From: an uncultured Candidatus Saccharibacteria bacterium
Lineage (GTDB): Bacteria; Patescibacteriota; UBA1384; DTJR01
Direction: 5' to 3'
NCBI GenBank assembly: GCA_964487045.1
Contig: CAZAOT010000002.1
Span: 195,511 to 259,510 of the forward strand
Length of the DNA stretch: 64,000 nt
Part shown: positions 5,112 through 64,000 of the stretch, piece by piece
Layout: each line of letters starts with the position of its first letter
How positions within the stretch are numbered: position 1 is the stretch's first letter
Program-made: the position numbers and the translations under genes
The notes under the pieces: model-generated
Told to the model about the DNA's origin: nothing
Seen by the model: only the letters and a program-made list of their open reading frames with translations
Databases searched by the model: none

Positions 5112-5142
5112 ATAATAAACATATTAGATTGCTCCTAAAAAG

Positions 5143-5676: not shown

Positions 5677-5726
5677 CGCAAAAAGCGAGGAAAGTCAAGC
5701 CCAGCCCTCCTTTTGGCAGGCTGGGC
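5677..5726 (-). terminator. Rho-independent terminator downstream of the nucleotidyltransferase gene.
   Basis: 8-bp stem gcccagcc/ggctgggc, followed on the minus strand by a T-rich tract. Lies about 90 nt downstream of the stop at 5818. Confidence 0.5.
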
Positions 5727-5817
5727 GCCGACCCCTCTCTCTAGACCCGAAAACGAACACGAACATATAGTTCGAGTGAGCTATCGAGTTAGAGGGAGCG
5801 GGTCAAGCACATTTATC

Positions 5818-7214: not shown

Positions 7215-7224
7215 CTGCCTCCCT

Positions 7225-7554
7225 CTACGCTATTCGTTCGATCGGTTCGCCCGATAAGCTGAACCAGTTGGGGCCATTCTGCTTGTGGGAACAGATCATC
7301 CTGTATCCCCGATCACTCTTCTCGAGCATCTCGGTGACCTGACGGCCACAATAGAATAGCATCTTCGCGATCGCGAGTAGCCTGATCTCCTCGCTCGCTC
7401 CGCCGCCAACTGCTACCCTACCGTAGGTATGCAAAAGCGGCATCGGCGTGAGAAATTCATCAAGCTGATCCGGCGTCGCGACTCCTTCCGGAATAGTGAC
7501 GAGCTGACAGACCAGCCCGCCAATCGAAACGAAACCCGTACTACAGTCTTTCAT
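7225..7554 (-). CDS. Hypothetical protein, GC-rich island.
   Basis: 109-aa ORF in the same tightly packed minus-strand array. No family recognised. Confidence 0.4.
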   Translation of the reverse strand: MKDCSTGFVSIGGLVCQLVTIPEGVATPDQLDEFLTPMPLLHTYGRVAVGGGASEEIRLLAIAKMLFYCGRQVTEMLEKSDRGYRMICSHKQNGPNWFSLSGEPIERIA

Positions 7555-7568
7555 CTAAACCTCCCTTA

Positions 7569-7814
7569 TCACTGACCGGCAGCAGGCCAGCCACCACAGA
7601 CGTTCATGGTTGCAAGGCTGTGCGTGCGAAGCTCGTATGCTCGTTTCGCGAGCTCTAGCTCTTCGGCAGTTAGCTCGATCCGACTTGTACATAGACAGGA
7701 GCGGTGGAAATCAGGTTCTTCTCCTTCTTGGTCAGACTCGACTGCGAAGACCCTGGTCTGTCCGTCACACCTACTACAGTGCTTTGCGTGCCCTAAGTCT
7801 ACAATTGCCATCAC
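7569..7814 (-). CDS. Hypothetical small Cys-rich protein, GC-rich island.
   Basis: 81 aa with CSRCDG...CLC...CGGW. Same-strand array. The overlapping plus-strand ORFs are taken as GC-rich artefacts. Confidence 0.4.
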   Translation of the reverse strand: MMAIVDLGHAKHCSRCDGQTRVFAVESDQEGEEPDFHRSCLCTSRIELTAEELELAKRAYELRTHSLATMNVCGGWPAAGQ

Positions 7815-7839
7815 TCAACCTCCAGAATTCCATCAGTAG

Positions 7840-8238
7840 TTATTTATCCTTGAACGTAACTCGCCACTGCCCTTCGACGTGATCGTAGTCTTCAACTTCA
7901 AAGACGTTTGGCTTATGCTTGACCACATCCTCCTCCTCAGGCAAACCTTCGAGAAAGCCAGCCGACCCGCATGTTGTACAGATACGCAGTCTCATCATGC
8001 AGTAGAATCGGCGCTCTAGTCTCTCCTCAAGTTCGTCAGGAGGATGATAACTGTCTAGGCGCGCAACAAACGAAGTTCCGCCACATTCACAAGGCTTTGG
8101 AACCCCGTAAATGAGCGCTTCGTGAATCAACTCTGGAGCACCCATGCACTCTCCTCCTTTATGACTCTTTTTGTCAATCTTGTCGGCTCTCGACATATGT
8201 CGAAAGCTCACAGATAGACAAACCCGCACACTTTTCAA
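7840..8238 (-). CDS. Hypothetical Cys-rich protein, GC-rich island. The real start may be the internal Met giving about 100 aa.
   Basis: Contains PKPCECGG...CTTCGSAG motifs. Has its own upstream AT-rich spacer that could hold a promoter. Confidence 0.4.
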   Translation of the reverse strand: MKSVRVCLSVSFRHMSRADKIDKKSHKGGECMGAPELIHEALIYGVPKPCECGGTSFVARLDSYHPPDELEERLERRFYCMMRLRICTTCGSAGFLEGLPEEEDVVKHKPNVFEVEDYDHVEGQWRVTFKDK

Positions 8239-8318
8239 CCTCTCGCAGTATCCCTATTCGTGAATCTGCGAATAGGTTTCAAAGTGAGGGGTTATTTTTG
8301 GGATTCTTTTTTTAAGGT

Positions 8319-8346
8319 ACAAAAACAAAAACCGGCTCGAGGCCGG
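8319..8346 (-). terminator. Palindromic hairpin (ccggc-tcgag-gccgg) preceded on plus by an A-run, so a minus-strand terminator.
   Basis: The perfect palindrome ccggctcgaggccgg has a T-run after it on the minus strand. Confidence 0.4.
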
Positions 8347-8670
8347 TAGCAATTCTTGTGTTTTATTTTACAAACTAAATCGCCCGGCCTCCGTTGTCGG
8401 TAAAATAAAACCAAAAATTAACATTCATCAATTTCATTATTTAATAATTTATCAAACAAAAAATACTCTGTCAATCCCTCACTCTTAGTCGATATTGATG
8501 TATACAATTTTAATTTGACTCATGGTGTTTGATTCAATTATCTTCTTCCTAAAAATAAAATTCGAAACGGCATCAACTATCAAACACTTTGATTTGCAAT
8601 CATGAAGATACATATAAGTTTCTTTTGATATTGCATCTGATGATGCGAATCGACTAAGAGTGAGTGATCA

Positions 8671-8706
8671 AGAAAAGAGGGCCGTTGCGTCAAGAGACGC
8701 AACGAC
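8671..8706 (-). terminator. Rho-independent terminator after the standalone LeuA regulatory-domain gene.
   Basis: Stem of 8-9 bp, cgttgcgtc-aagag-acgcaacg. Read on minus it is followed by CCCTCTTTTCTTG. Lies about 30 nt downstream of the stop at 8736. Confidence 0.55.
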
Positions 8707-8735
8707 CCGTAATCATTTTGGCAGTATTAACCCTA

Positions 8736-9170
8736 CTATGTCATAACTGCCAGCTTATAAGCGTCCAGGATTGCCATCCAGCCGGCATGGTCCTGGTTCT
8801 GGTGTTCAGCCACCGAGACCCAATGCTCAGAACCTCGGCGAAACTTGACAATGCAACGGACGATTCCGCCTGGCGACCGATTGCCATCCCGCTTGATCAG
8901 CTCGATGTGATAGTCGTACAAAGTAATCGAGTCGATCTTGGGAAGCATCTCTGCTATCGCCTTGTGCAAGGCGCAATCAAAAGCGTCGATAGGTCCGACG
9001 CCATCACCCGCCGAGTGAGCTTGGCGACTACCTACTTCAACCTTGACGGTTGCTTCGGTGTTTGGTTCCTCCCCACTCCAGGTAGTATTCAGCGTGATGT
9101 TGGTTACCGCAAAAGGTTCGCCGGCTCCAGCATCCTTCAGTTCCCGTATTCGCTCTTGGACGTTTATCAT
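8736..9170 (-). CDS. Standalone LeuA allosteric/dimerisation (regulatory) domain protein.
   Basis: 144 aa. GDGVGPIDAFDCALHKAI...IVRCIVKFRRG parallels the C-terminal LeuA_dimer domain of the adjacent leuA ([15 protein letters not shown]...). Immediately downstream of leuA on the same strand. Confidence 0.55.
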   Translation of the reverse strand: MINVQERIRELKDAGAGEPFAVTNITLNTTWSGEEPNTEATVKVEVGSRQAHSAGDGVGPIDAFDCALHKAIAEMLPKIDSITLYDYHIELIKRDGNRSPGGIVRCIVKFRRGSEHWVSVAEHQNQDHAGWMAILDAYKLAVMT

Positions 9171-9208
9171 AACGATCCCCTTCTGAAGAGTTAGGCAGTC
9201 ATAACCCG

Positions 9209-10750
9209 CTAGTGGCCGTTGCCATTGTCCAGCATGATCAGACGATTGACGGCATTGACCAAAGCCATTGCAGAGGCACGAACAACGTCAGTATCAGCCG
9301 CGCGACCCGTCACTTCACGACCTTTTTCGTCCTTCACGTGAATGGTCGCCTCGCCGATCGCGTCGCCGCCGCGAGTAACCGATCGGACTGAGTAGTCAGA
9401 GATCTCTAGCTCGATCCCTGTGATCCGCTGAATCACGTTGAAGGCGGCATCTACCGGTCCGTTGCCGAGCGACACATTTTCGAATTCTGCTTCGCCTTTT
9501 CTGAGAATCATCGTCGCTTGAGGCTTCAGCAGACCACCTGTTATTGTCGTCAAGCTGACGAGTGACCAGAAATCCATCCCCTCGGGCACATCGGAGCCCA
9601 TTTCGGTCATGATAGCGACTAGATCCTCATCGAAGACTTGCTTCTTGTTGTCAGCTAGTGCCACAGCTCGCTCGTAGATCTTGGCCAGCTCTTCGTCGTT
9701 GACTGTATAACCGAGCTCCTTGAGCCTAGCTCGATAACCGTGCTTGCCGGAACGAGGCCCGAGGGGCAAAGCTGTCTCGGTGCTGGACCAGCCGACATCA
9801 GCCGGATCCATGATTTCGTAGGTCTGACGATCCTTGAGCATACCATGCTGATGGATACCTGCTTCATGCCGGAACGCATTCGAGCCCACGATAGCCTTGT
9901 TCGGCTGAACAACGAAGCTCGAGTATTGCGACACTAGCTTCGAGGTCCCAACCAGATGCTTGGTGCAGATATCGGTGTAAGCGTCGAACTGATCAGATCT
10001 TGTCTTCAGAGCCATGACCACTTCTTCGAGTGAGCAGTTGCCCGCTCTCTCACCGATGCCGTTGATGGTGCACTCGACTTGACCTGCTCCCGCACGGATT
10101 GCAGCGAGAGAATTGGCAGTAGCCATGCCTAGATCATTGTGGTTGTGCACGCTGATCGTTGCCTGTGAAATGTTCGGCACATTGGTGATCAAATCAACAA
10201 TCACCGCTTCCATGATCCAAGGCATGGTATAGCCGACCGTGTCAGGGATGTTGACCGTGGTCGCACCAGCCTCGATAACTGTCTGAACGACGAGGCGCAG
10301 GTACTCGCGATCAGTGCGCATGGCATCCTCAGCCGAGAACTCGACATCATCGCATAGAGTCTTGGCAAACTGAACGGCCGAGCGGGCAAGCTCGAGAACT
10401 TCCTCGTAGGTCTTCTCGAACTTCCTCTCGACGTGTAGCGGTGAAGTGCCGATGAAAGTGTGAATCCTGCGACGGCTCGCTGGGGCAATTGCCTCGGCGC
10501 AGGAAACGATGTCGCTCTCGTTGGCACGACAAAGTCCGCAGATGATCGGGCCATCAACCTGCTCGGCGATGGCTTGAACGGACCGGAAGTCGGCCGGCGA
10601 AGAGAAAGGAAAGCCTGCCTCAATGACATCTACGTTGAGCTGGGCCAGTCTTTTAGCAATGGCCAGCTTCTCATTCAGACTCATACTCGCACCGGGTGAT
10701 TGCTCACCATCACGAAGCGTCGTGTCAAAGATTGTGATCCTACGACTCAT
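9209..10750 (-). CDS. leuA: 2-isopropylmalate synthase (LeuA / citramalate synthase family) with a C-terminal regulatory domain.
   Basis: 513 aa. N-terminal [19 protein letters not shown] is the HMGL-like TIM-barrel signature, with [21 protein letters not shown] and a C-terminal LeuA_dimer domain. GGGAGG Shine-Dalgarno lies 7 nt before the ATG. About 58% GC against roughly 35-40% in the flanks. Confidence 0.9.
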
Positions 10751-10830
10751 GATACTACCTCCCAGATTTCGGGCGCTGTGCGCCCTTCGTTTATGCTAAA
10801 ACAAAAAGCACAAACGCCCGATTCCAGGCA

Positions 10831-10862
10831 AAAGAAAAACCGCCTGTGTAGGCGGCTTTTCT
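10831..10862. terminator. Bidirectional hairpin terminator (ccgcc-tgtgta-ggcgg) with an A-run on one side and a T-run on the other.
   Basis: Lies between leuA and the 88-aa ORF. On the minus strand the hairpin is followed by TTTTTCTTTTG. Confidence 0.45.
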
Positions 10863-11086
10863 GATTCGTGTGTAAAAAGGTACGGAAGCTTTATTGCCGC
10901 CAAGTAAAGTCTAAGCCTAGTAGTAGGCCAAGATTCACCAAAGCGGTTTTATTAATAAAGCTCCTCAACATAAGGAGATTCTAGCTTAATTAGATCAAAA
11001 ATGCAACACTATGATTTGCTATTTAATCTAAAAAAGAAAGCGGTCAACAACTGCCCGCTTGGTACGCATCGTTCTGATGCAATGAC

Positions 11087-51706: not shown

Positions 51707-51817
51707 AGAACCTCCTTTATTTTGAATATATACCCATAATATAAGAAATATTTTTTAAGTCAATAACCTTTTTTTTCGCCTACAAATTCGGATATAGTCA
51801 CTAAGCTTGAAATGGCA

Positions 51818-51846
51818 TTGAAAAAAACTCTTTTTCAGGGTAAAAT
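51818..51846 (+). promoter_or_regulatory. Sigma70-like promoter TTGAAA-17-TAAAAT driving the tRNA-Pro/Gly/Arg cluster.
   Basis: TTGAAA at 51818-51823, a 17-nt spacer, TAAAAT at 51841-51846. tRNA-Pro begins 14 nt downstream. Confidence 0.55.
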
Positions 51847-51859
51847 ATCAAAGATGGAA

Positions 51860-51935
51860 CGGGGCGTGGCTCAATTGGTAGAGTGCCGGCTTTGGGAGCC
51901 GGAGGTTCCGAGTTCGAGTCTCGGCGCCCCGACCA
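51860..51935 (+). tRNA. tRNA-Pro(TGG).
   Basis: Acceptor CGGGGCG/CGCCCCG. Anticodon stem CCGGC/GCCGG with loop TTTGGGA (anticodon TGG). T-arm CCGAG-TTCGAGT-CTCGG. CCA is encoded. Confidence 0.8.
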
Positions 51936-52010
51936 AACTTCATTCCTTCGGAATTTCGCTTGGCGAGCCAGATCATTTGCGGGCCCGCCCTGCCGAAGCT
52001 TTAAGCGAAG

Positions 52011-52085
52011 GCGGGTATAGTATAGTGGTTATTATGCGAGTTTTCCAAACTCGAGATGCGGGTTCGATTCCCGCTACCCGCTCCA
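52011..52085 (+). tRNA. tRNA-Gly(TCC).
   Basis: Acceptor GCGGGTA/TACCCGC. Anticodon stem CGAGT/ACTCG with loop TTTCCAA (anticodon TCC). T-arm GCGGG-TTCGATT-CCCGC. CCA is encoded. The D-stem is weak (3 bp). Confidence 0.7.
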
Positions 52086-52130
52086 GAAAAAATTACTCAG
52101 TAATTTTTGAGGTGGAGCGATCGGGAATTG

Positions 52131-52215
52131 AAAGGCGGAGGCCGACGGGCCGAGCCGGGGTCGAGCGCGATTTCAGCAGAAATCGACGCGTGACCGATTC
52201 CCGCTACCCGCTCCA
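52131..52215 (+). repeat. Conserved tRNA-associated element, copy 3 of 3. Ends with a 21-nt duplicate of the tRNA-Gly 3' end.
   Basis: aaaggcggaggccgacgggccgagccggggtcgagcg-cgatttcagcagaaatcg-acgcgtgaccgattcccgctacccgctcca. The last 21 nt repeat 52065-52085. The 152-aa ORF predicted across this tRNA region is rejected. Confidence 0.55.
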
Positions 52216-52231
52216 AAAAAGAAGGAAATAT

Positions 52232-52308
52232 GCGCCCTTAGCTCAGATGGATAGAGCGACTCCCTTCTAAGGAGTAGGTCGCAGGTTCGAATCCTGCAGG
52301 GCGTACCA
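52232..52308 (+). tRNA. tRNA-Arg(TCT).
   Basis: Acceptor GCGCCCT/AGGGCGT (G1-U72). Anticodon stem ACTCC/GGAGT with loop CTTCTAA (anticodon TCT). T-arm GCAGG-TTCGAAT-CCTGC. CCA is encoded. Confidence 0.8.
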
Positions 52309-52426: not shown

Positions 52427-53773
52427 CTAACGAATTACCGAGATCTTCTTATCTTTCAAACTCATCTTAATTTTCAAACAGTTTAGGAGTTCTCGTTTTT
52501 CTTCACGAGACCCCTCACGAAGTACGAACTTTGAGTAATCTCTTAGATCCACTTTATTTTCTAAGTCCCTACTGACTTTCTGCTTTAATATTTTTGACAT
52601 AAATCTTTCATATCGTTCAATCTCGCTGTTGAGATGTTTTTGAGTGTTTAACGAATCGATATTGACTTGATCGATAATTTCACAAATTTGATCGGTCACA
52701 TCTTCTTCGCGAATGTAGGGCTGTTTACAGTCGCGATCTTTTCCACCAGTGCAATGATAGTAGACATATCTTCGAATTACTCCGTTGTCTTGCCGTTTGA
52801 ACTTCTCTTCGGCCGTCACGCCAGAACCACATACACCGCAGTAAATTAACTTAGTGAAATCGAATTCTTTGGTTCCTGGACGAGATTTAGGAATAATTGC
52901 CAATCTTGCCTGAACTTTATCAAATAGTTCCTTGGTAATGATCGATTCATGTCCGGCTTGATACCAAACGCCCGATCCCTTTGGATATTCGAAAGAGCCG
53001 TAATAATAATGATTGTTTAAAATTGCATAAACCGAGCTCAACACAACTAACCGACCTTGTCTGCTCCTAAAATCTATTGAGTTAAGCCAGCCGAGTACTG
53101 TTCTACCGCTTTCCCCATGGGAAACCCTTTCAAATATTTCTTTAATTATCGGAGCTCTTTCAGGATCTAAGAATATTTTCTTATAGCCTTTTTTACCACC
53201 AATTTCATTCAAGTAACCAAGCGGTGGAGCGCATGGTCTAAATCCCATCTCACATTTGGCCTTGAGCCCTCTTTTTACGTTAATGACTTTATTATCATTT
53301 TCTAACTTTGCCTGGCTTCCTAGAATCATCAACAAGAATTTATCGTTCGGTGAATTTGTAAACGTCTGATTAATTGTTCTGATTTCCAATAAATAATTCT
53401 GGTCCATCAGATCTACTAAAGTACCGAGATCGCCCGCGTTCCTACTTAAACGGTCTGGAGCCCAAGCAAGGATACCTTGAATTTTGTCTTCTCTAATATC
53501 TTTGATAATCGACATAAAAACAGGCCGTTCGCCTGAATTCTTTGCTGAATGACTTTCTTTTCTTATGTCAGCCACCTCCAAACCGTCTCTATCAGCAACC
53601 GTTAGCATTTCTTTCAACTGAGAATCAATCGACAAGGCTTGCAATTCGTCCCTCTCTGTCGATTTTCTTGCGTAAAGACAGAACTTGATCTTCTTATTTC
53701 CGGGCAATGTAGCTTCCATAGCAGAGAGGAAGGTACCGCAAGTGTTAGTTAAGTCAAGCAAAAACCCTTCCAT
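52427..53773 (-). CDS. Large serine recombinase (integrase) adjacent to the tRNA cluster.
   Basis: 448 aa. Resolvase catalytic domain (CLYARKSTERDELQALSIDSQ...DRLSRN), a recombinase domain and a zinc ribbon (CGVCGSGVTAE...YVYYHC). Confidence 0.85.
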   Translation of the reverse strand: MEGFLLDLTNTCGTFLSAMEATLPGNKKIKFCLYARKSTERDELQALSIDSQLKEMLTVADRDGLEVADIRKESHSAKNSGERPVFMSIIKDIREDKIQGILAWAPDRLSRNAGDLGTLVDLMDQNYLLEIRTINQTFTNSPNDKFLLMILGSQAKLENDNKVINVKRGLKAKCEMGFRPCAPPLGYLNEIGGKKGYKKIFLDPERAPIIKEIFERVSHGESGRTVLGWLNSIDFRSRQGRLVVLSSVYAILNNHYYYGSFEYPKGSGVWYQAGHESIITKELFDKVQARLAIIPKSRPGTKEFDFTKLIYCGVCGSGVTAEEKFKRQDNGVIRRYVYYHCTGGKDRDCKQPYIREEDVTDQICEIIDQVNIDSLNTQKHLNSEIERYERFMSKILKQKVSRDLENKVDLRDYSKFVLREGSREEKRELLNCLKIKMSLKDKKISVIR

Positions 53774-53840
53774 ACCTGTTAGCTTGGTGCTATGATTGAG
53801 CTAAATTGGTGTGATTCTTTATTAAAATTCAGAAAATTAA

Positions 53841-55328
53841 ATGACTAAGATAGAGCTATCCAAATTAGAACAACATATCTCAAAAGCTGCATGGATATTA
53901 AAGGGTCCAGTAGATGCTGCCGATTTCAAGGTTTATATTTTTCCTTTACTTTTCTTCAAACGAATTTCTGATGTCTATGATGAAGAATATATTCATATGC
54001 TCGAAGAATCTGGTGGCGACGATAGTTATGCCAAACTTGAGGAATTTCATCGTTTTGTAATTCCAGATGACTGCCACTGGGAAGATGTTCGATCAAAAAC
54101 CGTAAATGTCGGGCAAGCCCTTCAGTATGCATTCCGCGAGATCGAGAAGGCTAATCAGAAGTTTCTCTATGGTATCTTCGGTGACGCTCAATGGTCAAAT
54201 AAAGAAAAGCTTTCCGATAGCTTACTGATAGACCTGATAGAGCATTTCTCAAAAGTAAACCTCTCCACATCGAATGTAGATTCCGATATTCTTGGCCAAT
54301 CATACGAGTACCTTATCAAACAATTCGCTGATTTGACGAATAAAAAAGCAGGAGAATTCTATACACCACGTTCGGTTGTGCATCTGATGGGTAGAATAAT
54401 AGATCCAAAAGAAGGTGAATCAATCTACGATCCTGCGTGTGGTACCGGAGGGATGCTCCTGGAATGTGTAGAAGATCTCCGAAGAGAAAACAAAGATCCA
54501 AGAACTTTGAAAATATACGGGCAAGAAAAGAATTTGACTACCGCCTCGATAGCTCGGATAAATATGTTTTTACATGGCGTAGAAGATTTTAAAATAGTCC
54601 GTGGCGATACTCTTAGGAATCCTGCATTTTATGATGGCGATCAACTAGCCACATTCGATTGCGTAATAGCTAATCCACCATTCTCACTTAAAAAATGGGG
54701 TGATGATCTATGGATTAAGGACCCTTATGGAAGGAATTTTGCCGGGGTGCCACCGACTGGAAACGGCGATCTCGCTTGGGTTCAACATATGATTAAATCC
54801 ATGGCATTTCCACACGGAAGAATTGCAGTTGTATTGCCTCATGGCGCACTATTTAGAAAGGGTCGTGAAGGAGAAATTCGCAAGGCTATTCTAAAAATGG
54901 ATATTTTAAAAGCTGTGATTGGTCTTGGACCCAATATTTTTTATGGGGCTGGTATATCTGCATCAATCCTTATTTTTAAGGCAAACAAATCCGTAGATGA
55001 GAAAGGCAAAGTATTATTTATTGACGCATCCGATCAAATTCGGGTTGGGCGGGCTCAAAACTATTTGGAAGAAAAACATTCAAATCAAATTTATGATTGG
55101 TATTCAAATTTTGCAGAAGTTAAGAATAGTGTGCATTGCGCCACATTAGAGGAAATAGAAAAGAATGATTTCTCTCTGAACATACCATTATATGTAGAGA
55201 AAATTGTTGAAGACGATCTACCTTCAATTGATGAGGCGACTAATCAGCTGAAAGCATCAATGGATGAAATGTGGAAGGCAGAAGACAAGCTAAAAGAATT
55301 GCTTAAGGAATTTTCTTTGATGGAATAA
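53841..55328 (+). CDS. hsdM: Type I restriction-modification system methyltransferase subunit HsdM (copy 1).
   Basis: HsdM N-terminal domain, SAM motif I (DPACGTGGML) and catalytic motif IV NPPFS. 495 aa. Confidence 0.85.
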   Translation: MTKIELSKLEQHISKAAWILKGPVDAADFKVYIFPLLFFKRISDVYDEEYIHMLEESGGDDSYAKLEEFHRFVIPDDCHWEDVRSKTVNVGQALQYAFREIEKANQKFLYGIFGDAQWSNKEKLSDSLLIDLIEHFSKVNLSTSNVDSDILGQSYEYLIKQFADLTNKKAGEFYTPRSVVHLMGRIIDPKEGESIYDPACGTGGMLLECVEDLRRENKDPRTLKIYGQEKNLTTASIARINMFLHGVEDFKIVRGDTLRNPAFYDGDQLATFDCVIANPPFSLKKWGDDLWIKDPYGRNFAGVPPTGNGDLAWVQHMIKSMAFPHGRIAVVLPHGALFRKGREGEIRKAILKMDILKAVIGLGPNIFYGAGISASILIFKANKSVDEKGKVLFIDASDQIRVGRAQNYLEEKHSNQIYDWYSNFAEVKNSVHCATLEEIEKNDFSLNIPLYVEKIVEDDLPSIDEATNQLKASMDEMWKAEDKLKELLKEFSLME

Positions 55329-55330
55329 TT

Positions 55331-56794
55331 ATGGCTATAAAGCAACAAGCATTAGAAAAATATCTTTGGGGAGCAGCGACTTTGCTTCGTGGTGTTATCG
55401 ATGCCGGAGATTATAAGCAATACATCTTTCCTCTACTTTTCTATAAAAGAATATGTGATGTATATGACGAAGAAACCGCTACAGCCTTAGAAGAATTCGG
55501 GGGTGATTTTGCAGAAAATCATCGTTTCAAGGTTCCGAAAAATTCACATTGGAATGATGTCCGTCAGATTACGGTGAATGTTGGACAAGCGCTACATACT
55601 GCCTTGAGAGAAATCGAAAAAGCTAACCAAGATATGCTCTATGGGATATTTGGTGATGCATCTTGGACGAACAAAGATCGCCTTTCGGATGAAATTTTAA
55701 TAAATATACTCGAGCATTTTTCTGAACAAAATCTAAGTGTAGCGAACGTTCCCAACGATGAGTTGGGCGATGCCTATGAATTTTTGATTAAAAAGTTTGC
55801 AGATGATAGCGGTCACACAGCAGCTGAATTTTATACAAACCGAACCGTGGTTCATTTAATGACTTTAATAATGGACCCACAGCCAGGTGAAAGCATTTAT
55901 GATCCGACATGCGGTTCAGGCGGACTATTACTTAATTGTGTAAATCATTTGAAAGAACGAGGTAAAGAATTCAGAACACTCAAGCTGTACGGACAAGAAC
56001 TAAATCTTATGACCTCGTCTATCGCTCGTATGAATATGTTCCTGCATGGGATCGAGGATTTTCAGATTGTTAGGGGGGACACGCTTGCCCAACCTAAGTT
56101 CCTTGAGAATGACCAGCTTAAAACATTTGATGTCATTCTGGCTAATCCACCTTACTCAATTAAAAGATGGAATCGTGATGCATGGACCAAGGATCCATAT
56201 GGCAGAAATATTTACGGAACACCACCACAAGGTTGTGCTGACTATGCTTTTGAGCAGCATATTCTTAAGAGCTCAAATATAGAGCGAGGTAGAAGCGTTG
56301 TTCTTTGGCCACATGGAGTTCTCTTTCGGAATACCGAACAAGTATTTCGTGAAAAGATGCTAAAAGACGATATTGTAGATGCGGTGATTGGTCTTGGGCC
56401 GAACCTATTCTATAATTCGCCGATGGAATCCTGCTTACTGGTCTGCAGAAGTAACAAACCCGAAGAACGTAAAGGTAAGGTAATTTTTATAAACGCCGTT
56501 AATGACGTCACTAGACAGAATGCCTTTTCTTATTTAGAAGATGAGTCCATTCAAAAAATCTATAATGCCTACAAAGCTTTTGAAGATATTAATGGATTCG
56601 CCAAAGTTATTGACAATGATGCAATTATTTCAAATAAATCAAATCTGAGTATACCCCTTTATGTTTCACAAATTTCTTCAACGGAGGAGCAAAAAGATGT
56701 TATGGAAGTCGTTAAAGAATGGGCTGAAAGCAGCAAAAAGTTAAAAAAGAGTGCCGAGGAACTTTTTCAGATGATCGAAAAGGAGTTGATATGA
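55331..56794 (+). CDS. hsdM: Type I restriction-modification system methyltransferase subunit HsdM (copy 2, divergent paralogue).
   Basis: Same architecture as copy 1: YIFPLLFYKRICDVYDEE, motif I DPTCGSGGLL, motif IV NPPYS. Roughly half the residues are identical to copy 1 by eye. Starts 3 bp after the copy 1 stop. Confidence 0.85.
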   Translation: MAIKQQALEKYLWGAATLLRGVIDAGDYKQYIFPLLFYKRICDVYDEETATALEEFGGDFAENHRFKVPKNSHWNDVRQITVNVGQALHTALREIEKANQDMLYGIFGDASWTNKDRLSDEILINILEHFSEQNLSVANVPNDELGDAYEFLIKKFADDSGHTAAEFYTNRTVVHLMTLIMDPQPGESIYDPTCGSGGLLLNCVNHLKERGKEFRTLKLYGQELNLMTSSIARMNMFLHGIEDFQIVRGDTLAQPKFLENDQLKTFDVILANPPYSIKRWNRDAWTKDPYGRNIYGTPPQGCADYAFEQHILKSSNIERGRSVVLWPHGVLFRNTEQVFREKMLKDDIVDAVIGLGPNLFYNSPMESCLLVCRSNKPEERKGKVIFINAVNDVTRQNAFSYLEDESIQKIYNAYKAFEDINGFAKVIDNDAIISNKSNLSIPLYVSQISSTEEQKDVMEVVKEWAESSKKLKKSAEELFQMIEKELI

Positions 56795-57942
56795 TGGCAG
56801 CCGAATCACAAATAAAAAATATCTTGAATAATGAGGATAAATCTACTTGGGATTTGGTGTCTTTTGGCGATGTAGCAAGGGAACCGAGAGAATCGATCTC
56901 AAATCTTGAAGAAAGTCAAGTAAAACGGTTTGTCGGCCTAGAGCATATTAGTCCCAAGGATATTCACATCAGGTCATGGGGCGATGTTTCCGATGGAACT
57001 ACTTTCACCAGATCATTTAAAAAAGGGCAGGTGCTTTTCGGTAAAAGACGTGCCTATCAAGGCAAGGCTGCTTTAGCGGACTTTGACGGAGTTTGTTCTG
57101 GCGACATATTAGTTCTCGAGGCAAATGAAGAAAAAATGGAGCCAGGGTTATTGCCATTCTTAGTACATAGCGAAGGTTTTTATAATTGGGCCGTAAGCAC
57201 TTCTGCGGGATCACTTTCTCCTCGTACAAAATTCAAAGATTTATCTCGATACGAATTCCGGCTTCCGCCACGACTTCTTCAGAAGCAAATGGTGCGAATA
57301 CTGTGGGCTATCGATGAGGCTGAGAGTGGGTATATTAAGTTCTGTGAATCATTGAAATCAATGAAGAAGGCACTTTTCCAATTCTTCACCAGAGAAGCCG
57401 AACCAAAAAAAAGACTTGGAGAGTGTCTTATTCTTTCAAAAAAGAAGAGTGCATATCCTCACGAGGAAAAGTATTATTTAGGATTGGAGAATATCGATTC
57501 AGGGGCTTATGTTACAAATAGATCTATAGACGCGAAAGCAGTAAAATCAACCTGTAATATTTTCACAAAAGGTCAATTGCTTTACAGTAAACTTAGGCCC
57601 AATCTGGATAAAGCGATCATCTCAAGTTTTGAAGGTATTTGTACAACCGAGCTTCTTGTCTATGATGCCAAAGATAACAATAATTTGTATTACATTCTTA
57701 ATTTCTTACACTCAGATGATTTTATCCATTATGCAACTTCAAGAAGTTTCGGTACTAAAATGCCAAGGACATCACACGAGATTATTTCTGAATATTTGAT
57801 TTACGCTCCCACTGGCAAAGAACAAGAAGAGATATTAGAACAATTTTCCAAGATAAACGAATTAGAAGAAAGCTCTAAATCTCTGTTACGTAAGATAAAT
57901 CAGATAAAAACATCAATTATAAGTAAGGGGTTTAACAAATGA
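56791..57942 (+). CDS. hsdS: Type I restriction-modification specificity subunit HsdS.
   Basis: 383 aa with two target-recognition-domain halves separated by conserved helical spacers. Overlaps the stops/starts of the flanking hsdM and hsdR. Confidence 0.75.
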   Translation: MMAAESQIKNILNNEDKSTWDLVSFGDVAREPRESISNLEESQVKRFVGLEHISPKDIHIRSWGDVSDGTTFTRSFKKGQVLFGKRRAYQGKAALADFDGVCSGDILVLEANEEKMEPGLLPFLVHSEGFYNWAVSTSAGSLSPRTKFKDLSRYEFRLPPRLLQKQMVRILWAIDEAESGYIKFCESLKSMKKALFQFFTREAEPKKRLGECLILSKKKSAYPHEEKYYLGLENIDSGAYVTNRSIDAKAVKSTCNIFTKGQLLYSKLRPNLDKAIISSFEGICTTELLVYDAKDNNNLYYILNFLHSDDFIHYATSRSFGTKMPRTSHEIISEYLIYAPTGKEQEEILEQFSKINELEESSKSLLRKINQIKTSIISKGFNK

Positions 57943-60911
57943 CATTTAATGAACTAAATACAACAGAACACTTTATTCTGAATGAATTAGCTGGGATCAG
58001 CTTGGAGCAGCTTAAGGATGAGAATTATCGTGCTTCCGAGTCAGCCTTTCAGCCCGGTTCTGGGCAGTGGATTTATGCACCGTATAACCAATTGAAAAGA
58101 GAATTTTCGGATGTGCTTATTGAGTCTTTGCTCAAGGATGCACTTGTTCGGCTAAATCCCGACATTGCGACAAACCCTGCAAGAGCAGATGAAGTAATAT
58201 ATAAATTACGTGCCATTCTAATATCTGTTGGTAACTCTGGGTTGGTTCGAGCGAATGAGGAATTTTCAGCGTGGTTGCGGGGCGATAAGAGCATGCCATT
58301 TGGTGAAAATAATCAGCATGTAAGTATTAACCTGATCGATTTTGAAAATCCAAAGAACAATACATATATTGTTACAAATCAATACACTGTAAAAGGATCA
58401 GCTGAAAAGCGACCAGATATGGTTATGCTGGTGAATGGAATTCCTCTTGTTACAGCTGAATTCAAAACTCCGGTTCGTCCGGCAATCTCATGGCTTGATG
58501 GCGCAATTGATATCCACGATGATTATGAGAATACGATTCCTCAATTATTTGTCCCGAATGTATTTTCTTTTTCAACGGAGGGTAAAACATTTCGTTATGG
58601 TTCAGTAAGAATGCCACTTGAACTTTGGGGTCCTTGGCGCAATCAAGCCGCAAGCAGCTCGGGTTTATCAGAAATCAAACAAGCTCTGAACGGTTTGCTC
58701 AAACCAGAGAACATGCTTGATATGCTACAGAACTTCACTTTATTTGCTACGGACAACAAGAAACAGAGAATTAAGATTATCGCTCGATATCAGCAATTCG
58801 AAGGTGCAAATATGATTGTTGAACGAGTAAAAGCTGGTAAGCCTAAAAAAGGTCTTATTTGGCATTTTCAGGGTTCTGGTAAATCTTTGTTGATGGTTTT
58901 TGCGGCACAGAAATTGCGTCGTAGCCCAGAGCTGAAGAGCCCAACTGTACTCATTGTCGTAGACCGTGTTGATCTAGATACTCAAATCACAGGAACCTTT
59001 AATGCTACCGATGTGCCAAATGTAATATCCACCGATAATAGGTCAGAGCTTCAGGAGTTGCTTAGCAAAGACACAAGAAAAATTATCATCACAACTATTT
59101 TTAAGTTTGCAGAAGCGGATGGAGTTTTGAACGATAGAGAGAATATCATTGCGCTCGTTGATGAGGCTCATCGTACCCAAGAAGGTGATCTGGGAAGAAA
59201 GATGCGTGACGCCTTACCAAATGCGTTTCTTTTTGGTCTAACTGGAACCCCTATTAACAAATCTGATCGTAATACTTTTTGGGCTTTTGGCGCCGAAGAG
59301 GATGAACAAGGTTACATGTCGAGATACACATTCCAAGATTCGATTCGCGATAATGCCACGCTCCCACTTCATTTTGAACCACGGTTGCTCGAAGTTCATG
59401 TTGAAAAAGATTTGATTGATGCAGAATTCGATCTGATAACTGAGCATTTATCTGAGACCGATAGGACTAATCTCGTCAAAAAAGCGGCGCAAATGTCAGC
59501 GTTTCTTAAATCCCCAGCTCGTGTCCACATGATAGTAAAGGATATAGTTAACCACTTTAATACTAAAGTCGATCCATTCGCATTTAAAGCACAAATTGTC
59601 ACGCCTGATCGAGCTGCCTGCGATCAATATAAACAGGAACTTGATAAATTGTTACCTCCTGAAGCAAGTGCCGTTGTTATTTCAACTGGTGGCAAGGGTG
59701 AGTCAGATACCGATCTTAAGCAAAAATATTACATTACCAAAGAAGAACAGGAAAAATTACTCGATAATTTTAGAGATCCTCAGCATCCATTAAAGTTCTT
59801 AATTGTGACTGCAAAGCTCCTGACTGGCTTTGACGCACCTATTCTTCAATGTATGTATCTCGATAAAGCCCTTAAAGATCATAATTTATTGCAGGCAATC
59901 TGCCGAACAAACCGTGTTTATAAAGATAAAACGCATGGTTTAGTGGTTGACTACTTTGGTGTGTTTGATGATGTTGCAAAAGCTCTTGAGTTTGATGACG
60001 CTAGCGTCCGCTTGGTAATCACTGATATCAACGAGATTAAAAGTAAGCTGCAACAACTCATCGACCAGTGCCTTTCTCATTTTGGTGAAGTTGATCGTTC
60101 GGTTGAAGGTTACGAAGGACTGTTGCTTGCTCAGGATTGCCTAAATACCGACGAGAAAAGGGATGAATTCGCCGCTGACTATAGTTTGTTATCTAGAGCA
60201 TGGGAAGCGTTATCTCCCGACCCAATTTTGAATAAGTTTCAAAAAGAATATTCTTGGTTATCTCAGGTTTACGAATCGGTTAGGCCAGCATCGGGTGATA
60301 CAGGGAGGTTGTTGTGGCATGCGCTTGGTGCCCAGACGATGAAACTTGTACATGATCATATCCAAGTTCAGCGGGTCAATGATGATTTAGAAGAGATAGT
60401 CCTTGATGCTCAAGTTGTTGAGGATTTGATGAAAAAAGGAAACGAGAAAAATATCAAGCTCATTGAACTAGAGATTAGTAAAAGACTTAGTGGTCACGGA
60501 AATGATCCTAAGTTTGTGGCCTTGGGCATTCGGCTGGAGGAATTGCGGGACAGGGCTGAAAGGGGTTTGATTAACAGTGTTGAGTTTCTAAAAGATCTTA
60601 TTCAGATCGCGAAAGATACAGTGCAACTTGAGAACAAGTTGGATCCACAAGAGAAGAAAGACACTGCTAAGACCGCCCTCACAGAATTGTTCTTGGAGAT
60701 GAAAACAGAACAAACTCCCGCGATAGTAGAGAGAATTGTAAATGACATTGACGAAATAGTAAAGATTGTGCGTTTCCCTGGTTGGCAAAGTACGGCAGCA
60801 GGCGAAAGAGAAGTTAAACAGGCTCTCCGCAAGACGCTCTATAAGTATTCTCTGCACAAAGACAATATTTTATTCGATCGATCCTACGAATATATAAGGC
60901 AGTATTACTAA
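57939..60911 (+). CDS. hsdR: Type I restriction enzyme R subunit HsdR.
   Basis: 990 aa. N-terminal nuclease domain, SF2 helicase motifs (GSGKS, DEAH within LVDEAHRTQEG, QAICRTNR) and a C-terminal helical domain. Confidence 0.9.
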   Translation: MTFNELNTTEHFILNELAGISLEQLKDENYRASESAFQPGSGQWIYAPYNQLKREFSDVLIESLLKDALVRLNPDIATNPARADEVIYKLRAILISVGNSGLVRANEEFSAWLRGDKSMPFGENNQHVSINLIDFENPKNNTYIVTNQYTVKGSAEKRPDMVMLVNGIPLVTAEFKTPVRPAISWLDGAIDIHDDYENTIPQLFVPNVFSFSTEGKTFRYGSVRMPLELWGPWRNQAASSSGLSEIKQALNGLLKPENMLDMLQNFTLFATDNKKQRIKIIARYQQFEGANMIVERVKAGKPKKGLIWHFQGSGKSLLMVFAAQKLRRSPELKSPTVLIVVDRVDLDTQITGTFNATDVPNVISTDNRSELQELLSKDTRKIIITTIFKFAEADGVLNDRENIIALVDEAHRTQEGDLGRKMRDALPNAFLFGLTGTPINKSDRNTFWAFGAEEDEQGYMSRYTFQDSIRDNATLPLHFEPRLLEVHVEKDLIDAEFDLITEHLSETDRTNLVKKAAQMSAFLKSPARVHMIVKDIVNHFNTKVDPFAFKAQIVTPDRAACDQYKQELDKLLPPEASAVVISTGGKGESDTDLKQKYYITKEEQEKLLDNFRDPQHPLKFLIVTAKLLTGFDAPILQCMYLDKALKDHNLLQAICRTNRVYKDKTHGLVVDYFGVFDDVAKALEFDDASVRLVITDINEIKSKLQQLIDQCLSHFGEVDRSVEGYEGLLLAQDCLNTDEKRDEFAADYSLLSRAWEALSPDPILNKFQKEYSWLSQVYESVRPASGDTGRLLWHALGAQTMKLVHDHIQVQRVNDDLEEIVLDAQVVEDLMKKGNEKNIKLIELEISKRLSGHGNDPKFVALGIRLEELRDRAERGLINSVEFLKDLIQIAKDTVQLENKLDPQEKKDTAKTALTELFLEMKTEQTPAIVERIVNDIDEIVKIVRFPGWQSTAAGEREVKQALRKTLYKYSLHKDNILFDRSYEYIRQYY

Positions 60912-60920: not shown

Positions 60921-62480
60921 ATGAAACTTCTATTAGCTGGTCCCGGTACAGGTAAAACGACTAAGATAAAGGAGATGTTGACATCTCACTCCAATCTGGA
61001 TAGGGTGTTAGTTTTGTCTTTCACGAATGCTACAGTCCAAGATCTGATCCAAAGCTTTGCTGAAGATGGAATCGATATTACAGACCGTAATTGCCAGACA
61101 CTGCATAAATATGCATTGAGGCTGAATCATCAAAAAAATTTGCATATCCTAAATTCCGTTGAGGAAGATTGTCTTGGTTTTTATTCGAAAAAGTTCAATA
61201 TAGCTTTCCGCGATTTGTGTCGCGTGTTGGGGTGTATAACATTCGATCAAATGATTGTCCAAACAACGGCATATATTCAATCTAACCCAGCGTATCTTAA
61301 TGACCTTATTGGAGAAATAGATTTATTGATTGTCGATGAATATCAAGATTTTAACCAAACTGAAAGAGGTCTTATTTCATTAATTTCACAAAATGCAAAT
61401 GATTCCATCATATTAGGTGATGACGATCAATGCATATATGATTTTAAAGATGCAGATGCAGACGGAATAATGCAATTATATAACGACAGTGATGTCGAAA
61501 ATTTAGATCATCACAATGTCTGCTACCGTTGTCCGGACTGTGTTATTGACGCTTCTACTTCTCTTATTCAAAATAATCAACGGAGAGTCGCTAAGAATTG
61601 GATCAAAAATGGTAAAGAGGGTCAGCTTACATTTTGTCAATTTAGAACTCGGGATGAAGAGGCTGATTACATAATCAAAGAGATAGCATCCATTAAAAGT
61701 AACGACCCCAATTCAAGCATTATGGTTCTTTCGTCAGTAGGGTTTGCGCTAGATATAATTCATGACCAGCTCATCGAAAAAAACATTGAATTTGCTAATC
61801 TTTGCAGCCAAAAAATAGATCTAGAGAGCTTGAAAAAGCTTTGGGAAGTCAGGGCTATTCTAGGTAGTAAGAAAATACTGAATTTGCTATTTTTAATATT
61901 CCCTGGCATAAAAGGCAGTAAAAAATTATTAGCTGCACTAGCAACGAAGATGGGCGATACCTTAAGTGTCGAGACTATCGTAGACTTTATTGAGAATAAC
62001 AAGCTCATTGATTTTGATCTCCTCGAGTCGATAAAAAAAGGTCGATCTCTACAGGATCTGGTAAATGAATCTCAATATCTATTCCTGGCAGAACACCTGA
62101 ATGAATCAAAACTCGAGAGTGATTTAGAAAAGATCTCGCAGCTCATAACGGAGCCTGTATCTTTTGACCAAAATGGTATAAATCTTCTTTCCATCCATAA
62201 GTCAAAAGGCTTACAAGCGGAAAATGTGTTCATCGTCGGAGCAGTTGAAGGAATATTGCCCAATGTTCTTAGGGGGTTAGACAGTATTGAAATGCAAAGA
62301 AGATTACTTTTCGTTGGTATGAGTCGTTCCAAATCTAAACTCTATATTACATCAGCGATTGAATGGGACGGGAAATATGTAAATAAGTCAGACAAGGCTC
62401 AGTTTAAGTTTGACTTTAGATCTAGAAAGTATCTAGGCCGTGCATCTACATTTATATCAGAACTTAATTTACCGCAATGA
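60921..62480 (+). CDS. Short UvrD/PcrA-like superfamily-1 helicase (519 aa). Candidate defence-associated helicase.
   Basis: Motif I AGPGTGKTT, motif II LIVDEYQDFN, motif VI-like SIHKSKGLQAENVFIVG. It lacks the long accessory domains of UvrD. Starts 10 bp after hsdR and overlaps the next gene by 4 bp. Confidence 0.75.
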   Translation: MKLLLAGPGTGKTTKIKEMLTSHSNLDRVLVLSFTNATVQDLIQSFAEDGIDITDRNCQTLHKYALRLNHQKNLHILNSVEEDCLGFYSKKFNIAFRDLCRVLGCITFDQMIVQTTAYIQSNPAYLNDLIGEIDLLIVDEYQDFNQTERGLISLISQNANDSIILGDDDQCIYDFKDADADGIMQLYNDSDVENLDHHNVCYRCPDCVIDASTSLIQNNQRRVAKNWIKNGKEGQLTFCQFRTRDEEADYIIKEIASIKSNDPNSSIMVLSSVGFALDIIHDQLIEKNIEFANLCSQKIDLESLKKLWEVRAILGSKKILNLLFLIFPGIKGSKKLLAALATKMGDTLSVETIVDFIENNKLIDFDLLESIKKGRSLQDLVNESQYLFLAEHLNESKLESDLEKISQLITEPVSFDQNGINLLSIHKSKGLQAENVFIVGAVEGILPNVLRGLDSIEMQRRLLFVGMSRSKSKLYITSAIEWDGKYVNKSDKAQFKFDFRSRKYLGRASTFISELNLPQ

Positions 62481-63199
62481 ACTATCGTCTAATTGCAATT
62501 CAAATTGGAGATATGCTGAAATATGACTCAACCGTTAACGACATTAATCGCGCCGCCCAATCAGTATTTAGTTTCAAATGCGACACATTCCCGAATGAAT
62601 CGATTACTTCTGTCCGAGCTCAATCGATTTTCGACTGGGTGATGTCGCTCGCAAGGCAAAGAATGGACAATGATGAGCGAAATGCGAGATTGCTTCAATT
62701 TATCGAATTGATCACTCCTGAATCTTTCAAAGACGCAATTAACAAAATATTAGATCAAGGCGGGCTTCTAACTCAGTCGGCAGTATCAAAAAATGACTTT
62801 CACAGCAGAAACTTTCACTCAGAGATTAATAAACATTGTTTGAAGTTATTTTCTCAGGGTAATTATTTTCATTCAGTCTTTGAGGCAGCAAAAGTGTTCA
62901 ATAAAAAAGTTCAGGAGAAAGCCAAGAGTGTAAAAGATGGTCAAGCTTTGATGATGGAGGCTTGGACGAGTTCGGGAGTATTAAAACTGACGCGTTGTGA
63001 AAGTGAAACCGATAAAAATGTTCAAGAGGGAGTCAAGTTTCTTTCGGCGGGACTGATGCAAGCGTTACGAAATCCAACTGCGCATGAACCGGCACTGGAT
63101 TGGCCAATATCCAAAGAAGATTGCCTGGATATGCTTAGTTTTATTTCGTATCTTCTAAGGCAATTGGATAAAGCAGTGTTTTTTAAGCAAGAGAAATGA
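62477..63199 (+). CDS. TIGR02391 (Hypoth_Ymh) family protein, a defence-island-associated domain.
   Basis: The C-terminal half (...FHSVFEAAKVFNKKVQEKA...GQALMMEAW...QEGVKFLSAGLMQALRNPTAHEP...DCLDMLSFISYLLRQLD) matches my recollection of the TIGR02391/Ymh pattern (F..A.K.LE...G..LM..AF...EQ.G...L..G....RNP.AH). Translationally coupled on both sides. Confidence 0.6.
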   Translation: MNYRLIAIQIGDMLKYDSTVNDINRAAQSVFSFKCDTFPNESITSVRAQSIFDWVMSLARQRMDNDERNARLLQFIELITPESFKDAINKILDQGGLLTQSAVSKNDFHSRNFHSEINKHCLKLFSQGNYFHSVFEAAKVFNKKVQEKAKSVKDGQALMMEAWTSSGVLKLTRCESETDKNVQEGVKFLSAGLMQALRNPTAHEPALDWPISKEDCLDMLSFISYLLRQLDKAVFFKQEK

Positions 63200-63993
63200 A
63201 ACTGAATTATCTTTTTGACTCAAATGCCGTACTAGTACAAGATGAGAATCCAAATGAAATTCACGACTTATACACCTTTAATTTTTTAGGAGAAAAAATC
63301 ATCTGGAAGGCTCAAAAGCCCGGGCGGGAGGTCGTCCTAGAGTTAGTTCTGCGTAACCAGAACTTTAAGAAGAAGATTGAGAAAATTCTAAAATTTGCGT
63401 CACTTGTTGTATATAGGGACAGCCATGTGGATAGCTTTAGATACTTGTTTCACGTGAACGCTAATGTAGGTCGATTACCAAGTCAGGCCGGACTAGAAAC
63501 TAGATTTATCGTTATTGGTAACGAGCCATTATTCACAAACAAAATGTGGTCTATGCTATCTTTTTATCTTGAGGCTAAAAATTCCACAAGTTTTTATTAT
63601 AAGTTTATTTGTTTGTATAAAATTATAGAGATTGATAATTTGCGGAATGAAAAACGAAATGGAAAAAAAATTCTAGTTGAAGATTCGCAAGCAACACAAA
63701 AGTATATCGAAATGGAAATAAGCAATATTCTAACCCGACAAGAGCTTGATGAACTCAATAGAGAGGTTGAATCAACAATGCTGAAAAATAAAAATATCGG
63801 AGAATATTTTAAGCATTTATTTCGTGATGCATTTGCTCACACCGGATACTTGACCAGAAACGATTATAAATTCGGTTATCCTACGATGAATCCGACAAAT
63901 TTTGATGATTATTTAAGATACCAGAAAGCCGTCAACTGGTTTGATGAAATAGCCAAGAGAGCAGTAAGAAAGAACGAGCCGAAACTAGCATGA
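63196..63993 (+). CDS. Hypothetical protein, third gene of the helicase-Ymh operon.
   Basis: 265-aa ORF whose start overlaps the upstream stop (ATGA). Another ATG at 63990 overlaps its stop, so the operon continues past the window. No family recognised. Confidence 0.5.
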   Translation: MKLNYLFDSNAVLVQDENPNEIHDLYTFNFLGEKIIWKAQKPGREVVLELVLRNQNFKKKIEKILKFASLVVYRDSHVDSFRYLFHVNANVGRLPSQAGLETRFIVIGNEPLFTNKMWSMLSFYLEAKNSTSFYYKFICLYKIIEIDNLRNEKRNGKKILVEDSQATQKYIEMEISNILTRQELDELNREVESTMLKNKNIGEYFKHLFRDAFAHTGYLTRNDYKFGYPTMNPTNFDDYLRYQKAVNWFDEIAKRAVRKNEPKLA

Positions 63994-64000
63994 ATTATCT

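Follow-up and report, generated by a model that had tools for sequence, protein, structure and literature searches.

Genes behind a Type I restriction–modification operon of a Saccharibacteria genome are probably stacked modules in a variable defense slot

We studied the last four genes of a 64,000-nucleotide (nt) stretch of DNA, hereafter the window, from an uncultured Candidatus Saccharibacteria bacterium (assembly GCA_964487045.1, contig CAZAOT010000002.1, positions 195,511 to 259,510). These genes directly follow a Type I restriction–modification (RM) operon and encode, in this order, an orphan GajB-like helicase of superfamily 1 (SF1), a solo HEPN-family protein with a Ymh domain (called Ymh below), a rare MauJ-family protein (p3) and a zinc-ribbon protein (p4). 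Comparison with related loci suggests that they are independently assorting modules stacked in a variable slot of a small integrative element widespread in Patescibacteria, and we consider this assignment, including that of p4 as a backbone gene, to be probable. It departs from an earlier sequence-only reading of the same DNA, in which the genes formed one candidate novel or variant defense module. The four genes are as follows.

60921-62480, plus strand: orphan SF1 UvrD/GajB-like helicase, 519 amino acids (aa) (open reading frame (ORF), Pfam, PADLOC, PDB)
62477-63199, plus strand: Ymh/TIGR02391 HEPN-domain protein, 240 aa (PF09509, TIGR02391)
63196-63993, plus strand: MauJ-family protein p3, 265 aa (PF17419)
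63990-64000, then 4670-5770 of the overlapping contig L001, plus strand: start of p4, 366 aa in full, ending 1090 nt past the window

Homology with related elements begins at start codons

The most informative comparison is with locus L170, which consists of genes for a serine recombinase, a PLD-SNF2 protein, a methylase (Eco57I-type), a 659-aa UvrD helicase, Ymh, p3 and p4. The window aligns with it at 86% nt identity from position 62478 (base two of the Ymh start codon) into p4, and homology returns only at the recombinase end (53685-53792, 83% identical, comprising the recombinase 5' end and intergenic sequence). Between these two blocks everything differs, with the PLD-SNF2, methylase and 659-aa helicase genes in L170 versus the Type I RM operon and the 519-aa helicase gene in the window; the two helicases are non-orthologous, with 25% identity. 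Because the junction lies exactly between helicase and Ymh, the helicase appears to have moved with the RM block and not with Ymh. A further junction is seen in L169, a locus with a recombinase, a 378-aa gene, a DUF4352 gene and p4 that lacks helicase, Ymh and p3. There, 89% nt identity to the window starts exactly at 63990, the p4 start codon. Since homology with related elements thus begins at start codons, the pattern points to cassette-like exchange of blocks at gene boundaries. No motif was shared ahead of the junctions at 62478 and 63990. The recombinase relatives in L086, L169, L170 and L171 carry Resolvase, Recombinase and Zn_ribbon_recom domains.

Among the fetched p3, Ymh and p4 loci, the four components did not co-occur across unrelated genomes. 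The sequence-only reading had looked to co-occurrence of helicase, Ymh and p3 elsewhere as the mark of a module; the trio recurs only in the near-identical L170, and there with the non-orthologous helicase, so that it is essentially absent elsewhere and does not form a conserved unit. The pair of an orthologous 519-aa helicase and Ymh recurs once, in L091.

p4 as the probable edge of a variable defense slot

An exact-sequence look-up retrieved a metagenomic contig, L001, that is identical to the window across 4680 nt and adds 1572 nt. In it, p4 ends the array, and a convergent gene for a 106-aa HNH endonuclease (L001 5798-6118, 1118-1438 nt past the window end, minus strand; PF01844, 1.5e-7) comes next. 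A GC-rich hairpin with a T-run, constituting a terminator on the strand of the HNH gene, overlaps the p4 stop codon. The earlier expectation of more genes past the window edge, therefore, held for the ORF that begins at 63990 but not beyond it, as the operon stops there.

Relatives of p4 occur in 283 species-representative genomes, nearly all of them labeled as Patescibacteria or candidate phyla radiation (CPR) lineages. Its genomic context was sampled in 80 fetched loci; context sampling took the best 80 hits per scan, and neighbor genes are our own longest-ORF calls. Searches of these loci with phmmer and family profiles found neither a helicase nor p3 near p4, and a single Ymh-domain ORF, in L028, lay ~6 kb off. 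A variable plus-strand block has p4 as its 3'-terminal gene; in 59 of 76 loci the gene before p4 shares its strand, mostly with a spacing below 50 nt. The first one or two genes before p4 include those for Shedu SduA, Hachiman HamB, KAP/PifA/QatA-like nucleoside triphosphatases (NTPases), Schlafen-AlbA2 and ThsB-TIR proteins; NERD, NotI, SMODS with AGS_C, patatin, Type I S subunits and YgjP-like proteins are further examples. A ParB-N6/N4-methylase, a small or large terminase or a large serine recombinase is encoded within 6 kb of p4 in 46 of the 80 loci, with the large terminase assigned to phrog_38 (2.5e-78). Because p4 stands beside both this catalogue of defense genes and genes of the element, we interpret it as the conserved flank of a defense-cargo slot in small integrative elements. 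It is probably a backbone gene that delimits the cargo slot on its 3' side and has no specific partnership with the genes upstream. Loci with the p4-marked slot are L005-L084, L169-L171 and L174-L179. A hallmark comparison of six IMG/VR contigs gave no evident capsid or portal gene in p4 elements, the remaining ORFs of those contigs being left without annotation.

The p4 protein has a helical N-terminus, and its alignment contains at least eight invariant or near-invariant cysteines that form four CxxC pairs (zinc ribbons). A confident model of a 90%-identical homolog (predicted local distance difference test (pLDDT) score of 90.9) comprises a long helical hairpin, a β-rich zinc-ribbon center and a ferredoxin-like C-terminal domain. 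From these sequence features, p4 probably serves the element or the slot by binding nucleic acids through its zinc ribbons. No family for p4 was found in Pfam, PADLOC or NCBIfam, PHROGs yielded a zinc-ribbon fragment only, tblastn against 50,697 phage records gave no match, and comparison of the model to PDB and BFVD gave no informative match, with nothing below E 1e-3 in BFVD. A role as nuclease or known phage protein was, on these searches (Pfam, PADLOC and NCBIfam, PHROGs, phage tblastn and BFVD), unsupported.

LOOT RNA (Rfam RF03000) is also part of this family of elements, scoring 89-99 bits (gathering score 46) in L170 (11541-11664), L169 (6826-6947), L171 (1820-1941) and L086 (675-797). 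It usually lies just after the recombinase or before a gene of ~375 aa, on the same strand as p4, and was detected by nhmmer in 13 of the 80 p4 loci. Positions 6216-6252 of L001 (1536-1572 nt past the window end) correspond to a conserved 37-nt stretch that precedes LOOT elsewhere. As L001 ends in this stretch, the genome of the window probably has LOOT just past the HNH gene. Nothing usable on LOOT turned up in the literature.

An orphan GajB-like helicase

The first gene after hsdR encodes an SF1 helicase of the UvrD/Rep/PcrA type in which motifs I to VI and the UvrD N- and C-terminal domains are present; the sequence-only reading had recognized a minimal UvrD-like SF1 helicase with motifs I, II (DEYQD) and VI. 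Pfam matches above cut-off were UvrD_C (1e-23), UvrD-helicase (1e-22), AAA_19 and UvrD_C_2. The protein aligns with UvrD/PcrA structures (best PDB match, UvrD 4c2u, 3e-25) through GPGTGKT, DEYQD, GDDDQCIY, YRC, HKSKGL and VGMSRS, with the motifs intact. Its best PADLOC matches are the GajB models PDLC00117 (2.4e-40) and PDLC00114 (1e-38). A single ortholog was seen, the L091 protein with 58% identity, the gene of which again overlaps that of Ymh by 4 bp. Relatives on plasmids comprised only conjugative-plasmid helicases with 24-26% identity, which are uninformative, and IMG/VR contained no relatives.

A solo Ymh protein of the HEPN family

Residues 111-233 of the Ymh protein match PF09509 (Hypoth_Ymh; 4e-33, 114 bits with a cut-off of 25) and TIGR02391 (3e-27, 95 bits with a cut-off of 39.45), bearing out the C-terminal domain assigned to the second gene earlier. 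The stretch from R198 to H203 (RNPTAH) does not vary among 35 homologs drawn from several phyla, nor do E204 and P205. The N-terminal domain is conserved, and residues 1-105 match no Pfam family, ATPase and AbiJ-NTD models included. In PADLOC, residues 105-233 match positions 134-263 of the 270-position PD-Lambda-3_B profile (2e-25), leaving the N-terminal domain unmatched. Ymh is a HEPN-family protein and a predicted ribonuclease (RNase). Family members from Caldicellulosiruptor, Thermosipho, Geobacter, Bacteroidota and one archaeon share 58-75% identity.

Ymh has been described as a HEPN family with an Rx4-6H motif, with ‘solos ... in operon with R-M’ (Anantharaman et al. 2013, PMC3710099). 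The recurrence of the domain in RM neighborhoods, which the sequence-only reading had also pointed out, was thus published in 2013 and was evident again in our survey of the 80 closest metagenomic loci, 44 of which had at least 1.6 kb of upstream sequence. The commonest gene upstream encodes an Eco57I/N6_Mtase/TaqI_C methylase, often preceded by that of a PLD-SNF2 protein, while in other loci the Ymh gene lies inside Type I operons. RM methylases and Type I subunits predominate among the neighbors, and only 2 of 126 neighbor proteins were UvrD. A UvrD-type helicase was found within two small ORFs upstream of Ymh in five loci representing three distinct arrangements: L091 with the 519-aa ortholog, L092/L093 with a complete GajA-GajB Gabija system and L131/L134 with a 933-aa helicase. 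Except for L091 (58%), the helicases beside Ymh are 23-26% identical to that of the window.

Two features of these loci deserve mention in their own right. The PLD-SNF2 helicase (~1060-1125 aa) and the Eco57I/MmeI/TaqI_C methylase (~1040-1200 aa) form a recurrent two-gene RM-like pair, present in L090 (1278-8723), L106 (1263-8723), L112, L170 (135-6504) and L088 (1-5625); no other neighbor is commoner upstream of this Ymh family. In L092/L093 (1066-8720), hsdR is followed by Gabija (GajA with AAA_15 and OLD-TOPRIM domains and a 657-aa GajB-like helicase) and then by the Ymh family gene, so that RM systems are not alone in having Ymh appended.

A rare MauJ-family protein with HEPN-like features

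The 265-aa protein p3 had been thought to lack any recognizable family, which proved wrong; residues 121-257 match Pfam MauJ (PF17419) at E 3e-11 and 44.6 bits (gathering score 28), and all p3 relatives match PF17419 as well. The family is rare, comprising 16 clusters in an indexed search and 33 representatives among 1.84 billion proteins in a profile search. In members down to 21% identity, W118, E126, S132, Y135, R210, H215 and P233 are invariant and N129 and S130 near-invariant, giving a pattern of an ExxNSxS patch and an Rx4H motif. The AlphaFold model (pLDDT 71.6) has an N-terminal β domain and a C-terminal helical domain. On the strength of the Rx4H motif and this medium-confidence fold, p3 is most likely a second HEPN-type protein and nuclease. 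The sequence-only reading had proposed comparing p3 with nucleases by structure prediction; the fold in this medium-confidence model looks HEPN-like. Profile–profile comparison of p3 with Ymh gave no link, which is expected between HEPN families and adds no support. Literature searches on MauJ and HEPN turned up nothing usable.

Relatives of p3 close unrelated defense arrays, and the genes directly upstream of them are mutually unrelated. In L085, a Type I RM system, a YgjP-like gene and an HNH gene precede p3 and p4. In L086/L087, the order is HpaII RM, Vsr, a 1328-aa NACHT-like protein, a 196-aa protein and p3; in L088, it is PLD-SNF2, methylase, a 233-aa protein, a 1203-aa protein and p3. 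Neither of these two latter arrangements includes p4. From sequence and model, evidence that the MauJ family is HEPN-like and defense-associated is now at hand. A MauJ-type domain also forms the C-terminal part of proteins of 490-560 aa (P0230, P0232, P0234-P0236 and P0241), in which the N-terminal region of ~300 aa has no Pfam match.

Layout of the array and further features of the window

The remaining genes of the array and the elements next to it are listed below. The names hsdM1, hsdM2, hsdS and hsdR are those that the sequence-only reading gave from the translations.

51860-52308: tRNA-Pro, tRNA-Gly and tRNA-Arg cluster, adjoining the recombinase-bounded island
52427-53773, minus strand: large serine recombinase (ORF), the island boundary beside the tRNA-Pro/Gly/Arg cluster
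53841-55328, plus strand: hsdM1 (ORF)
55331-56794, plus strand: hsdM2 (ORF)
56791-57942, plus strand: hsdS (ORF)
57939-60911, plus strand: hsdR (ORF)

Used as phmmer queries, hsdM and hsdR match genes of L085 with Pfam HsdM_N/N6_Mtase and HSDR_N/ResIII/T1R_D3-like domains, and hsdS has a match in L111 and none in L085. The hsdM copies are tandem paralogs with 51% identity (53841-55328 and 55331-56794), both of which keep intact S-adenosylmethionine (AdoMet; DPxCGxGG) and NPPF/NPPY motifs, an unusual two-methylase Type I layout.

As the sequence-only reading had noted, the genes after hsdR are joined by 4-bp start/stop overlaps. The ORF list and the sequence confirm ATGA at the helicase/Ymh, Ymh/p3 and p3/p4 junctions, and hsdR is separated from the helicase gene by a 9-nt gap. 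The hsdM1, hsdM2, hsdS and hsdR genes are tightly joined likewise, and the array is divergent from the serine recombinase. With overlaps or gaps of at most 9 nt throughout, the eight genes from 53841 form one uninterrupted array, hsdM-hsdM-hsdS-hsdR-helicase-Ymh-MauJ-p4, which is probably co-transcribed. Consensus scans inside the array gave plus-strand promoter and terminator counts at or below chance. Across the window, 4-bp overlaps occur in 8 of 39 same-strand gene pairs, four of the eight outside the island, and half of all same-strand pairs are spaced by 20 nt or less. Because overlaps are so frequent in this compact genome, coupling by itself tells little about function, and the 4-bp overlaps are weak evidence of functional coupling.

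The data support a location of the defense genes in a recombinase-bounded island. Of the integrase-bounded island proposed earlier, one boundary is now accounted for by the serine recombinase, and the other lies beyond the window. Elsewhere in the window, a 152-aa ORF at 51812-52270 is spurious, as it overlies tRNA-Pro, tRNA-Gly and tRNA-Arg. Positions 7001-11000 have a G+C content of 0.52-0.545, compared to ~0.39 elsewhere; this segment is not rRNA, because a gathering-level Rfam search of the window returned tRNAs only.

Alternative explanations

Several observations weigh against independent stacking. In L091, downstream of another RM system, the orthologous helicase gene once more overlaps that of Ymh by 4 bp; in L170, another UvrD-type helicase occupies the same position upstream of Ymh; p3 and p4 show tight coupling in every case to the gene upstream, whatever it is; and the HEPN assignment of p3 draws on a motif and a medium-confidence model, with nothing gained from profile–profile comparison to Ymh. 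A dedicated abortive-infection system of helicase and Ymh, to which the MauJ-type protein might belong as well, could be proposed instead. In it, the helicase would sense phage DNA or ends and activate one or both HEPN RNases, with the Type I RM system and p4 as mere neighbors. Its case is made by the pair in L091 (helicase 58%, Ymh ~72% identical), by other GajA-less UvrD-type helicases upstream of Ymh in L170 and L131/L134 and by the intact motifs of the window helicase. We nevertheless regard such a system as unlikely, given that a UvrD-type helicase lies upstream in only five of the surveyed Ymh loci, that a complete Gabija accounts for one of the three arrangements, that the helicases beside Ymh are only 23-26% identical to one another and that p3 is found with HNH, NACHT-like and unknown partners in the absence of Ymh; the L170 junction, in addition, places the helicase with the RM block. 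Extending the unit to all four genes, including the zinc-ribbon p4, as in the sequence-only reading, would account for the unbroken 4-bp overlaps across them and for the full set in L170. That locus, however, is a close relative (86% nt identity over Ymh-p3-p4) in which the helicase is not orthologous; a 90%-identical p4 stands in L169 without the other three genes, p3 occurs in L086 and L088 without p4, and the 80 further p4 loci have no helicase or p3 nearby and one distant Ymh-domain ORF. A single four-gene system is, therefore, largely refuted by the co-occurrence data and extremely improbable.

Since p3 and p4 are tightly coupled to any upstream gene, one or both might act as generic downstream partners of the slot, as a shared regulator, adaptor or effector, in place of passive flanks. 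Both invariably close arrays that are otherwise unrelated and tightly spaced with them, p4 is kept in 283 species genomes beside many different defense families, and its four zinc-ribbon CxxC pairs suit nucleic-acid binding. On the other hand, p4 also follows genes that do not look defense-related, such as DUF4352 (L169) and a lipoprotein-like gene (L171), co-localizes with terminase, ParB-methylase and recombinase genes like a backbone gene and has no catalytic or regulatory fold recognized in PDB and BFVD comparisons, and p3, with 33 representatives, is too rare for a general partner, making this role quite unlikely. Very unlikely, in our estimate, is a broader version in which p4 and possibly p3 form a generic downstream component (regulator, adaptor or effector) of a Patescibacteria-wide slot that serves the inserted cargo, with LOOT in the same control circuitry; if true, p4 would be co-transcribed with, and serve, Type I/III RM, Shedu, Hachiman, CBASS, Thoeris-like and other cargo. 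A service to the mobile element itself, with the helicase in replication and the HEPN proteins as addiction toxins, is highly improbable. The ORF list shows neither an MNT-type antitoxin nor another small partner gene, Ymh orthologs reside mostly in RM neighborhoods of many unrelated genomes, and almost none of the related elements has the helicase, which, thus, cannot be an element replication function.

Proposed mechanism and implications

Stacked modules in a variable slot, the reading we consider probable, would suggest the following division of labor. The Type I enzyme would provide the first line of defense by restricting incoming DNA. By analogy to PrrC/RloC beside Type I systems and to the Ymh-containing PD-lambda-3, the Ymh and MauJ-type proteins may be latent HEPN RNases that form a second, abortive-infection layer and, on restriction bypass, lead to growth arrest or death. 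The helicase could act as an optional ATP-driven sensor of phage DNA or as a motor for Ymh, for which the orthologous pair in L091 is the sole positive sign; most Ymh orthologs have no helicase upstream. For p4, nucleic-acid binding might contribute to element function or slot regulation.

The arrangement of Ymh after RM genes is already described and not new. New in detail are a GajB-like helicase coupled to Ymh in the absence of GajA, a second, putatively HEPN-like MauJ-type gene in the array, p4 as an anchor of a Patescibacteria defense slot and an element family linked with LOOT RNA. The helicase and Ymh are a candidate minimal pair. The p4 family offers a handy anchor to mine defense genes in Patescibacteria, a clade with few cultured members, and the orphan LOOT RNA gains a genomic context through p4 elements. 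The locus also advises caution: translational coupling and a defense island suggested a new system, while the comparative context points to cassettes stacked at gene boundaries.

Comparison with known systems

Comparison with known defense systems supports the conclusion that no named system fits the array. Closest to the helicase is Gabija, as its best PADLOC match is GajB (2.4e-40), but at 519 aa it is shorter than the best-matching GajB profiles (604-635 positions), and the adjacent GajA, an ABC/OLD-type ATPase with TOPRIM domain, is not present, in contrast to the true GajA-GajB-Ymh locus L092. No AAA_15 or OLD-TOPRIM match was found among the scanned downstream genes (Ymh, MauJ, p4 and HNH; hsdR had no scan). 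With no GajA in the array, the locus is not Gabija, and the L001 extension, also devoid of a GajA-like gene, upholds the earlier judgment that a GajA-like partner is missing. Hachiman was rejected because the window helicase is of the SF1 UvrD type and not of superfamily 2 (SF2), and neither HamA (DUF1837) nor HamB is among the PADLOC matches listed for the four proteins (for the helicase, the best 25 of 46).

PrrC and RloC, which PMC3710099 also discusses, are anticodon nucleases linked to Type I RM, in which a HEPN RNase serves as fallback when restriction is blocked. The window shares with them a HEPN RNase gene, here that of a predicted RNase, within or beside a Type I hsd operon. It differs in that Ymh has no fused ABC-ATPase and that the separate SF1 helicase is the only NTPase nearby. 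With no fused ATPase, the locus is not PrrC/RloC, though it probably works alike.

PD-lambda-3, reportedly described by Vassallo and colleagues in 2022, is said to be a two-gene abortive-infection system of E. coli. The model of its B protein matches the Ymh domain of the window (2e-25, residues 105-233), a match limited to the Ymh C-terminal domain. PD-lambda-3 is characterized as an abortive-infection system (PMC13190303) with a PD-(D/E)xK component (PMC10952713), and this partner is absent here. We rejected PD-lambda-3 because the Ymh domain is the only match and no PD-Lambda-3_A match is listed for the helicase (best 25 of 46), p3, p4 or HNH.

Likeness also exists to the solo Ymh proteins in RM operons (PMC3710099), with which the window protein shares the domain, the Rx4H motif (RNPTAH), a solo protein after RM genes and a predicted role as second-line RNase. 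It differs in having an N-terminal domain without Pfam match and in lying between an orphan helicase and a HEPN-like gene. The system reported in PMC13586616 resembles the locus in its overall organization, with a variable slot between conserved element genes in which diverse defense systems are swapped as cassettes; here, in contrast, the host clade is Patescibacteria, the flanks are a large serine recombinase or ParB-methylase/terminase genes versus p4, and LOOT RNA is associated.

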